A DNA stretch of 64,000 nt from Clostridia bacterium (GTDB lineage: Bacteria; Bacillota; Clostridia; TANB77; UBA1234), in NCBI GenBank assembly GCA_017469565.1, contig JAFUGC010000003.1, positions 13,656 to 77,655 of the forward strand. The letters are read 5' to 3'. The position numbers and the translations under genes were made by a program. Positions 9,951 through 63,866 of this stretch are shown here, piece by piece. The notes below the pieces were generated by a model. The model saw nothing but the letters and a program-made list of their open reading frames with translations, was not told the origin of the DNA and ran no database searches. Position 1 is the first letter of the stretch; the number at the start of each line of letters is the position of its first letter.

Positions 9951-10190
9951 AAAAGTTTCCCCCTATAAAGTGATAGAAATAATCACATATTTAATTCGCA
10001 ATCATTATTATAGCACGGCTTATAAACTTATGTCAACAAAATAATATAGATATTTTATGAAAGTAGGAATCTTTAAGTAGGTATTTACACTTTTTCCTCC
10101 GTCCCTAATTTGTCCACCTTGCTATTTACATTTAAAAAATAATGTGCTATAATGACTCTTGTCTTAAGATAGAAAAAAGGTTATAATCAT

Positions 10191-10316
10191 ACCGTAAAGT
10201 GTGTTTATATGAATGGTGGTCAAGGAAAGACTATGAACCTTGTCAGGTCCGGAAGGAAGCAGCAATAAGTAGATCCTTTTTTGTGATACACCATTCATAT
10301 AAGCGTATTTTACGGT
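10191..10316 (+). ncRNA. ffs: signal recognition particle RNA (small/4.5S-type)
   Basis: Contains the conserved domain IV sequence GTCAGGTCCGGAAGGAAGCAGC. The long closing helix is ACCGTAAAGTGTGTTTATATGAATGGTG...CACCATTCATATAAGCGTATTTTACGGT, followed by a T-run. It sits in the canonical position upstream of dnaX. The 5' end is approximate. Confidence 0.75.
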
Positions 10317-10343
10317 ATTTTTTATTAAGGGTGGGGGAATGGT

Positions 10344-11762
10344 ATGTCTTATGTAGCTTTATATAGGCAGTTTAGGCCTAAGGTTTTTGAAGATGTTGTG
10401 GGGCAAGAACATATTACTAAAACTTTAAAAAATCAAATAAAAAGTGGCAGGGTGGCGCATGCTTATCTTTTTAGTGGAGGCAGAGGTAGTGGAAAAACTA
10501 GTACGGCTAAGATATTGTCAAGAGCAGTAAACTGCTTAAATCCAAAAGATGGTGAGCCTTGTAATGAATGTGAAATATGCAGACAAGCCTTAGAAGGAAC
10601 TTTAACAGATATCAGTGAAATTGATGCGGCATCGAATAATGGCGTTGATAATATTAGAGACATTCGAGAAGAAGTTGAATTTATTCCTACAAATGCTAGA
10701 TACAGGGTTTATATTATTGATGAGGTTCACATGCTTTCTACAGGTGCATTTAATGCTCTACTAAAAACATTAGAAGAACCACCTAAACATGTGATATTTA
10801 TTTTGGCTACCACGGAACCTCAAAAACTTCCTATCACCATACTTTCAAGATGTCAGAGGTTTGATTTTAAGAGGATTTCGGTAGAGAATATTATTAAAAG
10901 GTTAAATATCATTTGTAATGAATCGCATATCAAAATTGAAGAAGGTGCTCTTAAGATTATTGCAAAAATGTCTGACGGTGCAATGAGAGATGCCATTAGC
11001 ATATTAGAAAGATGTGTGGCAGATGGAGAAGATATCATCACAGAAGAAAAAGTAAGGGAACTTGTTGGAATTCCGGAATTAGAGTATTTATTAGAAATAT
11101 CAAAGAATCTGATGTTAAATGATGCTGCTCAGGTATTGGAAAGTGCAGAAAAAATCATTAATGAGGGAAAAGATTTAGAAATATTCACTTGGGAGCTTAT
11201 TAAGTTTATGAGAGATCTCATTATGCTTCAGATTTCAGATAATTTAGTACTTTATAAAGAGGATGAAAAAGTGAGAATGAGAGAACTGCTTAAGTTCACC
11301 GATAAGGAAAGATTGTTACGTTTGATTACGGATTTGTCATCCCTTCAGAGCAGCATGAAATGGGCATCGGACAGGGAAGTGATATTTGAAACAGGGCTGA
11401 TTAAGATTGCTTATGAGGGCAATCGTAATCAAATGCTTTCTCATGTAGGTATTTCTCAAAATGTGTCGGCCAAGGCAAATGGAAATGCCTCAGTTCCTCA
11501 GGAAAGTAATACATCAGATAATGAACTAAAAGAGAAAGTTCTATCAATATTAAAAGAAAATCGAAAAATGATTATGCACACAATTTTGACAGGGGCAGAA
11601 ATAAAAGTTGCGAGTGAAGACCTTGTGCACATTATTTTTGGAGCATCGATTGATGATGTTAACAAACAATATATGCAAAAAGAAGAGAGTAAAGCAGTAA
11701 TCAAAGAAACAGTAAAAAATGCTCTTCATAAGGAAATGAAAATTAAATATGTATTTGGATAA
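10344..11762 (+). CDS. dnaX: DNA polymerase III subunit gamma/tau
   Basis: AAA+ clamp-loader motifs GGRGSGKTS, zinc module CNECEIC, DEVHML, SRCQRF. Confidence 0.95.
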   Translation: MSYVALYRQFRPKVFEDVVGQEHITKTLKNQIKSGRVAHAYLFSGGRGSGKTSTAKILSRAVNCLNPKDGEPCNECEICRQALEGTLTDISEIDAASNNGVDNIRDIREEVEFIPTNARYRVYIIDEVHMLSTGAFNALLKTLEEPPKHVIFILATTEPQKLPITILSRCQRFDFKRISVENIIKRLNIICNESHIKIEEGALKIIAKMSDGAMRDAISILERCVADGEDIITEEKVRELVGIPELEYLLEISKNLMLNDAAQVLESAEKIINEGKDLEIFTWELIKFMRDLIMLQISDNLVLYKEDEKVRMRELLKFTDKERLLRLITDLSSLQSSMKWASDREVIFETGLIKIAYEGNRNQMLSHVGISQNVSAKANGNASVPQESNTSDNELKEKVLSILKENRKMIMHTILTGAEIKVASEDLVHIIFGASIDDVNKQYMQKEESKAVIKETVKNALHKEMKIKYVFG

Positions 11763-11885
11763 TCCAAGTAAAAAGTTTATGGTTAAGAAATTTTGAATTA
11801 ATTTGAATTAAATAGTTGTATCATGAATTTATATGTTATAATAAAGTGCATGTTGTAAATCAAAAATGAGAAAGGAAGATGAATC

Positions 11886-12236
11886 ATGGCAAAGTTTAAT
11901 GGATTCCCAGGAATGGGTGGAGGCGCCGGTAATATGGCAAACTTATTAAAACAAGCACAAAAAATGCAATCAGATATGATGAAAACGCATACAGAAATAG
12001 AGGAAAGAGAGTTTGAAGTTGCTACTGGCGGTGGCGCTGTGACAATCATCATGACTGGTAAAAAGACGATTAAATCAATCAAAATCAAACCAGAAGTTAT
12101 TGATAAAGATGATCCGGAAATGTTGGAAGATTTAGTGATGACAGCAGTGAATGAAGGCATAAAAAAAGCAGATGATATGATGGAAGAAGAAATGAAAAAA
12201 TATAATATTCCTAGTGGATTAAATGGACTATTGTAG
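11886..12236 (+). CDS. ybaB: YbaB/EbfC-family nucleoid-associated protein
   Basis: 116 aa with NMANLLKQAQKMQ... typical of the family, in the conserved dnaX-ybaB-recR order. Confidence 0.9.
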   Translation: MAKFNGFPGMGGGAGNMANLLKQAQKMQSDMMKTHTEIEEREFEVATGGGAVTIIMTGKKTIKSIKIKPEVIDKDDPEMLEDLVMTAVNEGIKKADDMMEEEMKKYNIPSGLNGLL

Positions 12237-12257
12237 TATTAGAGAGGTTTTTGAAGT

Positions 12258-61900: not shown

Positions 61901-62327
61901 TAATGTGAGAGCAGATGCTACTGCAAAATCCATTGCGGATAAAGACGGCGTTGAAATTAAGCTTTATTCTGTTATTTATAATGCAATTGATGATGTGGAA
62001 GCAGCACTAAAAGGAATGTTACAACCAAAATATAAAGAGGTTATTCAAGGTACAGCTGAAATTAGGCAGACTTTCAAGATTACTGGTGCTGGTATGATTG
62101 CAGGATGCTATGTATTAGATGGCAAGATAGTTAGAAATTCTGGCTTAAGAGTGATTAGAGAGAATGTGGTTGTTCACACTGGCAAACTTGCATCGCTTAA
62201 GAGAATGAAGGATGATGCGAAAGAGGTTGCTGCTGGTTATGAATGTGGTGTACAAATTGAAAACTATGAGGATATCAAGGTTGGAGATAAGTTGGAATCA
62301 TTTATTCTAGAGGAAATTAAAGACTAA
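58962..62327 (+). CDS. infB: translation initiation factor IF-2 with an unusually long low-complexity N-terminal region
   Basis: G domain [17 protein letters not shown] and NKID, plus C-terminal IF2 domains; 1121 aa. Confidence 0.95.
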
Positions 62328-62337
62328 GTGATGAGTC

Positions 62338-62754
62338 ATGAGTGATGAAAGGAAGATACAAATGGAAAGAACAGATAGAATTGAAGAAGAAGTGAAAAAA
62401 ATTGCAAGTAAGGTAATTGATAGAGATTTAAAAGACCCAAGGCTTACAGGTATGATTAGTGTGACAAAGGTAACAGTATCCAGAGATTTGAAGTATTGCA
62501 AAGTATATGTTAGCATGCTTGGAACAGAGGATGAAAAAGAGGCTATGGCAGCATTAAAATCTTCTGCTGGATATTTAAGAAAAGAAATTGGGGATAATAT
62601 TAGAATGCATTCTACCCCTGAAGTGGAATTTATTTTGGATGATTCGATTGCTTATGGAAATAAGATTGAGCAAATCATTAAAGAGTTAGATATTAAGCCT
62701 TTGGAAGAGGAAACTTCTGAGGAAGAAAGTGACACAGAGAATACAGAGGAATAA
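62338..62754 (+). CDS. rbfA: ribosome-binding factor A
   Basis: ..RIEEEVKKIASKVI..DLKDPRL...VTKVTVSRDLKYCKVYVS. Acidic tail. Confidence 0.9.
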   Translation: MSDERKIQMERTDRIEEEVKKIASKVIDRDLKDPRLTGMISVTKVTVSRDLKYCKVYVSMLGTEDEKEAMAALKSSAGYLRKEIGDNIRMHSTPEVEFILDDSIAYGNKIEQIIKELDIKPLEEETSEEESDTENTEE

Positions 62755-62853
62755 TTTTGAAAAAACAGAATTCATTAGGTATAATAGTAATGAGACACAA
62801 AACGGATTAGTCCTTATGTGTCTCAAATGTTTAAGATAAGAGGGAGTTTGAAA

Positions 62854-63822
62854 ATGTCCATATTAGATAGTATCAAAGAAAAGGTAAATGAAGCAAATTC
62901 GATTTTAATTCTTACTCATGAAAATCCGGATGGAGATGCAGTTGGTAGTTCTCTTGGGTTTATGCATGGGTTAAGAAAACTAGAGAAAAAGGTGGATGTA
63001 TTTATTCCAGTGGCAAATAAAATGTACAGTTTTATGCCAGGATTTGATGAAATCAAGACAGAGCTTGCAGACGATGCGGAGTATGATTTGTGCATTTCGC
63101 TAGACAGTAGTGATTTAGACAGGCTCGGTTCTTTTGGAAGACCTTGGTTTGAGAAGATAAAAAATACAGTTGTAATTGATCATCACATTACCAATCAAAA
63201 TTTTGGCGATGTGAACTATGTGAATGCGGTTGCATCTTCTACCTGCCAGAATATTATTGTAGTGCTTGCTGCACTTGATGTTGCCATTAATAAGGATATG
63301 GCAGTTTGCATTTATTCTGGAATGCTTACCGATACAGGTGGCTTCAGGTATAATGTGCAGCCAGAAACCTTTGAGTTTGTTGCTATGCTTCTAGAAACAG
63401 GAATTGATATTGCTAAAATTTATAGGAATCTTTTTGATTTGACTACTGAGAAAAGAACAAGATTGCTTGGTAGAGCATTATCAAGGCTGGAGTTATTAGA
63501 AAATGGTAAAATAGCCTTTACATATGTTACAAATGAAGATGAACATGAATTTGAAAATGAAGATGGAGACCATGAGGGAATTGTTAATTACGGCAGAAAT
63601 ATTGAGGGTGTTGAAGTTTCCATATTCCTTAGAGAAAAGGATGGCGGATATAAGGTAAGTCTTCGTTCAAACGAATATGTTGATGTGTCTAGAATTGCTG
63701 CCAAATATGCAGGTGGCGGACATTTGAAGGCTTCTGGTTTAGAACTTAAAATGTCTTTTGATCAAGCAAAAGATTTGTTAGTATCCGAAATAAAAGGGCA
63801 GTTAAAAGAAAATGAAAAATAG
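62854..63822 (+). CDS. nrnA: DHH/DHHA1 phosphoesterase (NrnA-like)
   Basis: HENPDGDAVGS, VIDHH and GGGHLKASG motifs. ATG 62854 follows AGAGGGAG. Confidence 0.8.
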   Translation: MSILDSIKEKVNEANSILILTHENPDGDAVGSSLGFMHGLRKLEKKVDVFIPVANKMYSFMPGFDEIKTELADDAEYDLCISLDSSDLDRLGSFGRPWFEKIKNTVVIDHHITNQNFGDVNYVNAVASSTCQNIIVVLAALDVAINKDMAVCIYSGMLTDTGGFRYNVQPETFEFVAMLLETGIDIAKIYRNLFDLTTEKRTRLLGRALSRLELLENGKIAFTYVTNEDEHEFENEDGDHEGIVNYGRNIEGVEVSIFLREKDGGYKVSLRSNEYVDVSRIAAKYAGGGHLKASGLELKMSFDQAKDLLVSEIKGQLKENEK

Positions 63823-63833
63823 GGAAACAAGTA

Positions 63834-63866
63834 GGGGACGGAGGAAAACGTGTTACCTCCGTCTCT
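63834..63866. repeat. copy of the GGGACGGAGG...CCTCCGTC hairpin repeat (terminator-like)
   Basis: GGGGACGGAGGAAAACGTGTTACCTCCGTCTC is near-identical to 13561..13592. A partial third copy lies at 10085..10115. Confidence 0.8.

Follow-up and report, generated by a model that had tools for sequence, protein, structure and literature searches.

RAYT-like genes (a RAYT is a tyrosine transposase associated with REPs, which are repetitive extragenic palindromic sequences) have been described between long terminal inverted repeats (TIRs) that share the motif GGGGWSAS, together with dispersed TIR families of moderate abundance (Di Nocera, De Gregorio & Rocco 2013, PMC3733652). This TIRtron/TIRYT system probably corresponds to TnpAY1 subclass 2.1, which equals the Group 1 RAYTs of Bertels and is defined by an NHVH motif, a Y[IV]HLNP-like tyrosine motif, an SS motif, a length of ~238 aa and a C-terminal tail of the helix-turn-helix (HTH) type; no REP-like structure was found beside its genes (Quentin et al. 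2018, PMC6006769). Group 1 RAYTs have been reported in Clostridia (Bertels et al. 2017, PMC5581495), and REPs tagged with CGTC have been reported without a dedicated transposase (PMC3733652). Here we analyze a 64,000-nt stretch of genome from an uncultured Clostridia bacterium (contig JAFUGC010000003.1, positions 13,656 to 77,655; hereafter the window), in which repeats built on a GGGAC core recur between genes. We consider it likely that these repeats are the REP-like ends of a TIRtron encoding a RAYT-like Y1/HUH transposase of subclass 2.1, together with its non-autonomous descendants.

A sequence-only reading of the window had claimed intergenic enrichment of the 9-mer GTCCCTAWT, and counting bears this out. 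Both strands together contain 11 exact matches, whereas shuffling predicts 0.85, and 0/100 shuffled sequences had as many. These sites start at 10101, 13557, 13587, 14978, 15017, 19487, 19554, 44273, 50302, 51866 and 53210. The remaining positions listed in that reading (44131, 44202, 50283, 50519, 51650, 51665, 51882 and 53007) are one-mismatch variants, a class that includes GTCCCTGAT, GTCCCTAAA and CTCCCTAAT. By a crude gene map that assigns 11.9% of the window to intergenic DNA, 16 of the 17 TAGGGAC/GTCCCTA sites and 36 of the 60 GGGAC/GTCCC sites (p = 1e-18) are intergenic. As an unbiased test, we ranked all strand-symmetric k-mers by intergenic excess, and this ranking within the window agrees: GGGAC is second among 5-mers behind poly-A only, making it the top non-homopolymer, while the 6-mer ranking is headed by AGGGAC and GGGACA, and the 7-mer ranking by TAGGGAC. 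The base after GGGAC is A or G at 34/36 intergenic sites compared to 10/24 coding sites. At greater length, the 25-nt consensus GTCAAAAANNNNNGTCCCTRAWTGA has nine copies where none are expected. Altogether, the window contains nine full main-type units and ~36 intergenic GGGAC sites; the portion of the genome read consists of this 64-kb window and one 12-kb scaffold. At gathering thresholds, Rfam reported only transfer-messenger RNA (tmRNA) and signal recognition particle (SRP) RNA genes in the window, with no match at the repeats.

The main sub-family is a 36-38 nt unit, (A)TTATGTWACGTCAAAAAGGGTTGTCCCTAATTGACG. Six of its nine consensus copies form the inverted ends of three gene-less elements of ~240-270 bp, which we call E1, E2 and E3, and the other three lie in a tandem array of 71-bp units. 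The elements have inverted arms of 34-57 nt, found as inverted repeats at 50299-50529, 51639-51898 and 52994-53230, and they fill consecutive gaps: tsaC/Sua5, E1, a SHOCT-domain gene, E2, a RhuM-family gene, E3 and a PepE-like gene. [quoted passage not shown] Its ends match the unit profile with nhmmer E-values of 2e-13 and 3.7e-11, and it is 81-83% identical to E2 and E3. In E2 (51639-51898, forward strand; I3), between the SHOCT and RhuM genes, the inverted ends are 57 nt long with arms 89% complementary, each a 14-nt half-unit (GTCATTTAGGGACC) plus a full unit (E = 7e-14 and 2e-13); Tandem Repeats Finder (TRF) detects the 14-nt period at 51645-51671 and 51867-51893. Tandem half-units of this kind form the outer tips of element ends. 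E3 (52994-53230, forward strand; I4), between the RhuM and PepE-like genes, is 93% identical to E2, and both of its ends score E = 2e-13. The stop codon of the RhuM-family gene (TAG, 53008-53010) sits within the left end of E3 (TTAGGGAC), so the final few RhuM codons come from the repeat. Three Logan contigs of ~1.36 kb (L003-L005), assemblies of the SHOCT gene, begin and stop within the flanking elements, which indicates that such repeats fragment metagenome assemblies.

The tandem array (44103-44327) resembles a bacterial interspersed mosaic element (BIME), with 3.1 copies of the 71-bp unit (TRF 44103-44324, score 372; nhmmer E = 6e-11 to 2e-9), each containing the near-palindromic CGTCAAAAAGGGACGTCCCTGATTGACGG. 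Similar units occur at L054:2810-2920, probably in the same genome. Folded as single-stranded DNA, the array unit reaches -10.2 kcal/mol (z = -4.3), and the main unit reaches -9 kcal/mol (z = -5.5) with a 6-bp stem, a 2x2 internal loop, a 4-bp stem and a tetraloop. Every main-type end carries an inward-facing, promoter-like GGGACA-16 nt-CATAAT, with matches at 50306-50333, 51667-51694 and 53010-53037 and mirror sites on the minus strand; the left-end copy aims at the downstream gene. We looked for terminator-like structures at E1-E3 and the array and found none. No direct target repeats are visible at the junctions of E1-E3 or of three related loci (L010, L012 and L015), where the left flanks are T-rich and the right flanks A-rich.

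Searching for a REP-associated tyrosine transposase, as the sequence-only reading had proposed, revealed the same ends on either side of a RAYT-like Y1 gene in related rumen Clostridia. The full-length element, L015:531-1393, comprises an end, a 249-aa open reading frame (ORF) and an inverted end, with the TAA stop codon inside the right-hand unit. Its product matches Pfam Y1_Tnp with 41 bits (cut-off 23) and reaches 68.6 bits, under the cut-off of 80, against the NCBIfam model REP_Tyr_transpos (NF047646). We found 486 homologues at E < 1e-5, nearly all metagenomic; those named by their sources are labelled transposase, in metagenome-assembled genomes (MAGs) of Clostridia, or RayT. Across an alignment of 49 homologues (239-256 aa), H14, N58-H59-x-H61 (NHVH) and Y119...N123-P124 (YIHNNP) are invariant, and the consensus continues after the tyrosine motif with the SS motif YxYSSY. 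With the single transposase sequence as query, phmmer found no match in the PDB, but a profile search ranked E. coli TnpA-REP (4er8) first. The AlphaFold model of the L015 protein (pLDDT 86.9) likewise has 4er8_A as its best Foldseek match (E = 1.5e-6), followed by the TnpA proteins of ISDra2 and IS608. The ~110 extra residues are C-terminal helices, four in the model, and some homologues have precomputed Pfam matches to PF13384, which we take to be HTH_23, and to PF13545 (HTH_Crp_2). Judging by these features (NHVH, YIHNNP, the SS motif and the C-terminal helical tail), the transposase appears to fit TnpAY1 subclass 2.1, Group 1 RAYT and TIRYT alike, an assignment made by the traits defined in PMC6006769.

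Several loci retain pieces of this gene. Elements at L012, L023 and L030 keep its first ~38 and last ~39 codons. In E1-E3, the right end is preceded by 70-100 nt that can be aligned, with 77-85% identity, to the 3' end of the L015 gene (the 3' interior of E1 to L015:1277-1378; positions 51787-51896 of E2 to L015:1277-1397, at 77%), and all three keep a '...KNG(I/V)M-stop' remnant. E1-E3 are therefore internal-deletion derivatives; at 237-269 bp, they are small non-coding elements with TIRs derived from an autonomous element, as MITEs are. These remnants show that the whole unit of end, gene and end was inserted at several loci and then decayed, which is behavior like that of an insertion sequence (IS).

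The repeats had been taken for a genome-specific family, and here the wider searches disagree. Scanning 185,579 species genomes with the main unit returned eight loci, six of them in uncultured Clostridia/Bacillota MAGs, four of which are named for ruminant omasum samples. A scan of JGI metagenomes with the same unit gave 17 loci, from samples that we take to be rumen-type because they have elements in common with the ruminant MAGs. We lined up 37 ends; the 36-38 nt unit is conserved in 31 distinct ends, whose sources are the window, metagenomes and MAGs of rumen Clostridia, whereas the interiors differ. Two candidates, L007 (Bacteroidota) and L025 (46% GC), were without the conserved flank TTATGTAAC and were treated as chance matches. 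Viral contigs matched neither the main unit nor the GGGGACACCTTCC type described below, and so give no link to phage. The main unit is nearly unchanged in several other uncultured ruminant Clostridia; the repeat family is lineage-restricted, not genome-specific.

The flanks of more divergent homologues share a simple code. We compared ten loci: L015 and nine loci (L031, L033, L035, L036, L038, L044, L049, L050 and L054) of eight other proteins that are 38-79% identical to the L015 protein. In all ten, inverted repeats with (G)GGGAC[A/G] flank the transposase gene, and the base after GGGAC is A or G in 37/40 flanking units. The feet of the units vary by lineage and are still self-complementary in most loci: CGTCAA/TTGACG in L015, L031 and L054, GACCAA/TTGGTC in L033, GTCCAA/TTGGAC in L035, AACTTG/CAAGTT in L038 and GTTGTCAA/TTGACAAC in L044. 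Stems are weaker or unclear in L036, which has an AT-only AAATTT foot, and in L050. Because a MAFFT alignment put units with differing spacer lengths out of register, we replaced a formal pair-count with our own position-constrained script, which counts a foot stem only if its halves lie 1-4 nt ahead of the core and 6-10 nt behind it. By this measure, the mean foot stem is 4.3 bp in transposase-flanking units and 3.9 bp at intergenic GGGAC sites of the window, compared to 1.7 bp at coding GGGAC sites (p = 2e-7 and p = 2e-5, respectively, for the difference from coding sites). The basic unit is ~28 nt long: a 5-8 nt foot, 1-3 nt, (G)GGGAC[A/G], ~4 nt, a T-rich run and the foot's complement. When single-stranded, it is predicted to fold into a short hairpin with GGGAC near the top of the stem.

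This grammar also agrees with GGGGWSAS, which occurs in homologue flanks as GGGGACAC or GGGGACAA in L031 and as GGGGACGC, GGGGACGT and GGGGACAC in L035, and in the window copies at 5890-6090, 28045, 47056 and 9617; the main window core, AGGGACAA, matches 6-7 of its 8 positions. Such a shared GGGAC[A/G] grammar explains why one core is seen in otherwise dissimilar hairpins. The single core that had been proposed to run through the sub-families is the one present in the flanks of all ten transposase loci. It is possible, at what we judge to be a little below an even chance, that the long TIRs of subclass 2.1/Group 1 RAYT genes are in general REP-like single-stranded hairpins, with an invariant GGGAC[A/G] and a foot stem that covaries by lineage.

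Some of these loci have further features. One MAG, GCA_002308995.1, contains two transposase homologues, one at L031 (79% identity to the L015 protein) and one at L050 (57%). Each has an end-repeat variant of its own, a pattern already described where a genome has several RAYT types. The left end of the element encoding homologue P0120 (L044:2250-2400) abuts the 3' end of an apparent tRNA gene, as read by eye and not with a tRNA finder; the same protein is found in a second context, L049, which keeps the last bases of the tRNA-like sequence. This suggests that the P0120 element moved along with its flank, or that recombination took place there. Homologue P0066 (L035:8082-9858) adjoins a module resembling a diversity-generating retroelement, with a bAvd-like gene and a reverse transcriptase.

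A candidate for the resident enzyme is P0008 (MBQ9280447.1), which is 75% identical to the L015 protein and lies 902 accession numbers from the Sua5 protein of the window (MBQ9279545.1). Its gene is on scaffold_498 of the ENA sample ERZ28653759, which also contains the window's scaffold_206; both scaffolds are present in ERZ28019184 too. GC content is 0.358 for the P0008 contig and 0.36 for the window. The ends of P0008 match the unit profile (E = 3e-9), and its contig has CGTCAAAAAGGGACGT units resembling the 44-kb array. Very probably, then, an intact transposase gene with cognate ends exists in the same genome as the window. We also looked by accession number for a second transposase paralogue of this MAG and did not find one. 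In three species (30-36% GC), the transposase gene follows ppdK (L015:441-600, L031:9800-10000 and L054:9700-10000) in a shared layout of solo unit, terminator-like hairpin, unit and transposase gene, and another homologue, P0082, has one context in 24/24 contigs read. The conserved layout and the single P0082 context point to a gene that is passed on vertically at low copy number, in line with descriptions of RAYTs, and the position after ppdK suggests long vertical inheritance, not repeated insertion.

Beyond the CGTCAA foot of the main type (E1-E3 and the array), the window contains several other foot types. ACAAA/TTTGT is the foot of an 82-bp REPIN-like inverted dimer of a diverged unit at 19484-19565 (I6; 32-nt arms, 88% complementary; nhmmer E = 6.5e-4 and 0.12), which folds with -25.1 kcal/mol (z = -8.4) and lies between the tmRNA gene and gene 19601-20341. 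The ACAAA type recurs at 15006-15027, within a region of two solo units, GGTGGGACGTCCCTATTGG and the diverged GAAAATGGATGTCCCTATTTG, upstream of gene 15103-15729 (14965-15027, forward strand; D3 member, 86%; nhmmer E = 0.023). It is found again at 17405-17450, where a head-to-head pair, AAACAGGGACAACC...GGTGTCCCTGTTT, and a subsequent T-run form a terminator-like structure between convergent genes (-11.3 kcal/mol, z = -3.1). The core match of this pair is not significant alone (nhmmer E = 1.8), and its arm AACAGGGACAACC is similar to the P0008 ends, CGTCAAACAGGGACAACC. The GATGCA/GGGGACACCTTCC type comprises a 230-bp compound palindrome at 5869-6100 (I1; 85-nt arms, 98% complementary) and a solo unit on the reverse strand at 28024-28054 (D7). 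The palindrome combines units GATGCATTTGGGGACACCTTCC with 12-nt half-units TGCATTTGGGGA, giving a 12-nt TRF period, and has foot stems of 5-7 bp and a core, GGGGACAC, that fits GGGGWSAS exactly. The solo unit, 90% identical to 6018-6048, directly follows the ordinary terminator of gene 27350-27958.

Three further types are hairpins. The GAACAACC hairpin at 9587-9663 (I20), between convergent genes, is a near-perfect 77-nt structure with GGGGACAACCTTTTTTGTCCC at its tip (-40.4 kcal/mol, z = -12.4; nhmmer E = 0.041 for CAAAAAAGGTTGTCCC). The GGGACGGAGG type includes a long hairpin between convergent genes at 13543-13609 (I8; 28-nt arms, 96% complementary; -27.9 kcal/mol, z = -11.3), which is flanked by an A-run and a T-run and has only the 9-10 nt core in common with the main family (nhmmer E > 2). 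A half copy of this type lies ~100 nt upstream of the SRP RNA gene (10085-10120, forward strand; D13), with 10096-10120 92% identical to 13582-13606. A diverged hairpin follows gene 62818-63822 (63834-63866; -9.3 kcal/mol, z = -2.8), and 63814-63866 is 79% identical to 13540-13592 (D11). The GGGACGGAGG hairpins share a 9-mer with P0120-type ends (GTTGTCAATGGGGACGGAG, L044), which is suggestive but not significant after multiple comparisons and serves as a lead only. Lastly, a 128-nt hairpin with 55-nt arms (47026-47153; I2, 98% complementary) contains CCAAGGGGACAGTG between a convergent UDG-like (uracil-DNA glycosylase) gene and recQ. Its core, GGGGACAG, fits GGGGWSAS, it has no foot stem at the standard position, and its link to the family is by the core only. 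In the nhmmer comparison with the unit profile, the CGTCAA and ACAAA types alone exceed core-only linkage; for the remaining foot types, we infer membership from the common grammar.

Everything named in the sequence-only reading (the 71-bp array, the ~240-bp elements, the 82-bp dimer and the hairpins) is present at the coordinates given there, and the REP/BIME-like behavior it described is apparent in the single units, inverted dimers, tandem clusters and MITE-like copies. Its view that the repeats mostly form terminator hairpins is too broad. With a hairpin and a T-run, 13543-13609 (bidirectional) and 17405-17450 look like intrinsic terminators, and 9587-9663 and 63834-63866 do so less clearly; 47026-47153 simply sits between convergent genes. 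Only these four loci are terminator-like, and the best-defined copies are the element ends and the tandem array.

Two RNA genes adjoin repeats: the 82-bp dimer is immediately upstream of a tmRNA gene (19064-19417, minus strand; Rfam 160 bits), and the half copy at 10085-10120 is immediately upstream of a small SRP RNA gene (10211-10299, plus strand; Rfam 56 bits). Elsewhere in the window, a tandem repeat with a 15/30-nt period and ~12-20 copies (7651-8127) lies within a 145-aa ORF on the minus strand (7669-8106), which would encode a repetitive protein rich in Ala and Lys (AAKPAAKK-like) and resembling histone-H1-like or cell-surface repeat proteins. A very AT-rich region with several low-complexity inverted repeats (8160-8680) covers the upstream side and first ~240 nt of gene 8436-9581.

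Could the repeats have arisen without a transposase? Plain intrinsic terminators or GC-rich hairpins might look alike in an AT-rich genome, which has few options for stable stems, and the hairpins at 13543-13609, 17405-17450, 9587-9663 and 47026-47153 do lie between convergent genes, the first two with T-runs. However, GGGAC stands out among all GC-rich 5-mers, the 36-nt unit is kept across species along with AT-rich flanks such as TTATGTAAC, and E1-E3 and the 71-bp array are not shaped like terminators. The same unit bounds both the transposase gene and its deletion derivatives, which refutes this explanation as the origin of the main family and leaves it improbable overall. Operators or uptake-type sites, bound by some host protein that has no part in transposition, would account for a conserved asymmetric core with tandem half-sites and for the promoter-like GGGACA-16-CATAAT in each end. 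Nevertheless, the motif has no strand bias and, unlike uptake sequences, is absent inside genes. The comparison to uptake sequences in the sequence-only reading gains no support, as the copies are excluded from genes and are mostly inverted pairs. Given also the association with transposase flanks in 10/10 loci examined, we regard such sites as a very unlikely source of the repeats.

Other kinds of mobile DNA fare no better. Small elements with 34-57 nt TIRs and no coding capacity are what would be expected of MITEs or fragments of an IS with a DDE transposase, moving by cut-and-paste with target-site duplications. Yet the enzyme of the full-length relative is of the Y1/HUH and not the DDE class, the junctions show no direct target duplications, each end is itself a hairpin bearing tandem half-units, and viral contigs gave no matches; there is hardly any likelihood of such an origin. 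The arrangement of element, SHOCT gene, element, RhuM gene and element, in a single orientation between housekeeping genes, could alternatively mean that E1-E3 are recombination sites of an integron-like or composite cassette array that imported the two genes. Against this, RhuM-family genes adjoin Sua5 in the distant relatives L057, L058 and L059, and the two of these that were scanned, L057 and L059, have zero GGGAC in 15 kb each, indicating that the neighborhood is older than the repeats. There is also no integrase or recombinase nearby, and each element is a complete two-ended copy. We rejected the cassette idea for the SHOCT and RhuM genes on the evidence from these relatives, and its chance of being correct is just as slight.

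Several observations weigh against a TIRtron origin as well. A six-frame search of the window for the Y1 transposase signature found none, so there is no transposase gene in the window itself, and the assignment of P0008 to the same genome is circumstantial. The P0008 ends, CAAACAGGGAC and GTCCCGTTTTGAC, differ from the E1-E3 ends, CAATTAGGGAC and GTCCCTAATTGAC; E1-E3 may therefore stem from another, L015-like copy. E1-E3 are only 81-93% alike and thus give no sign of recent activity. The GGGACGGAGG, 47-kb and 9.6-kb hairpins could be independent of the family, since the core, or the core and a few bases, is all that they have in common with it (nhmmer E from 0.04 to >2). Finally, we know of no subclass 2.1 enzyme for which binding, cleavage or transposition has been demonstrated.

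The sequence-only reading matched the repeats to no described family, but one described kind does fit: the repeats of TIRtrons or TIRYTs (PMC3733652), whose counterparts in other schemes are subclass 2.1 (PMC6006769) and Group 1 RAYT (PMC5581495). Shared with TIRtrons are a low-copy, chromosomal RAYT-like Y1 gene between long inverted repeats with GGGGWSAS, further copies of these repeats scattered as singles, dimers and clusters, and a protein of ~240-250 aa with NHVH, Y...NP, an SS motif and a C-terminal helical (HTH-type) tail. Here, in contrast, the hosts are uncultured rumen Clostridia, the main core is AGGGACAA, each end has a small hairpin inside it, with a stem that in most loci covaries by lineage, and MITE-like deletion derivatives with parts of the gene indicate movement of the whole unit. 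The kind of system is already known, as RAYT-like genes with GGGGWSAS inverted repeats, but is not described in this lineage. What is new is the family in uncultured rumen Clostridia, its clear MITE-like deletion derivatives and the covarying hairpin within the TIR.

The likeness extends to the canonical REP/REPIN-RAYT systems of E. coli and Pseudomonas: ~30-nt imperfect palindromes that fold as single strands, inverted dimers and BIME-like clusters in intergenic positions downstream of genes, and a Y1 enzyme in single copy between repeats of its own, with TnpA-REP (4er8) as the best structural match. However, our units lack GT[AG]G at the foot, having CGTCAA, ACAAA, GATGCA and others but no GTAG/GTGG; the ends reach 36-57 nt, including the non-palindromic TTATGTAAC; and the transposase has an extra ~110-aa C-terminal tail and scores below the NCBIfam RAYT cut-off. 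Like the CGTC-tagged REPs, the main unit begins with CGTC and ends with GACG, but this CGTC pairs within the stem and is not an unpaired tag, a CCA tail is lacking, the feet of sister lineages are GACCAA, GTCCAA and AACTTG, and the units have a transposase. The IS200/IS605 elements and their MITE-like derivatives share the Y1/HUH transposase, hairpin-bearing ends and probable single-strand transposition without target duplication. They differ in having Y...Q instead of Y...NP and ~150 aa instead of 249; here the ends are true inverted repeats, the gene keeps a fixed chromosomal place after ppdK in three species, and no tnpB was found near the transposase loci examined.

By analogy to TnpA-REP and to the TnpA proteins of IS608 and ISDra2, the transposase would bind the hairpin or the GGGAC core, then nick and rejoin single-stranded DNA through its conserved tyrosine. 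Its action would spread units, dimers and deletion derivatives into intergenic DNA. The tandem half-units at the element tips might offer extra sites for the C-terminal helical tail, as an additional mode of binding to duplex DNA. Once in place, some dimers may act as terminator hairpins; several sit at terminator-like positions, two with T-runs. In full-length copies, the transposase gene may be driven from the promoter-like GGGACA-16-CATAAT; in E1-E3, it is the downstream gene that may be.

In the window, the TIRtron reading assigns most of the long, GC-containing inverted repeats to one mechanism. Such repeats break metagenome assemblies and can provide terminator or promoter-like signals beside genes. 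The GGGAC core and covarying foot stem amount to a testable recognition rule for the largest and least understood RAYT group. The family extends to Gram-positive gut anaerobes the RAYT-type repeat systems that have been studied almost only in Proteobacteria and Cyanobacteria. If the long TIRs of this functionally uncharacterized group are indeed REP-like single-stranded hairpins, the group would run a REPIN-like replicator in Gram-positive anaerobes too. In rumen Clostridia, the system would still yield copies of the whole element along with MITE-like deletion derivatives.

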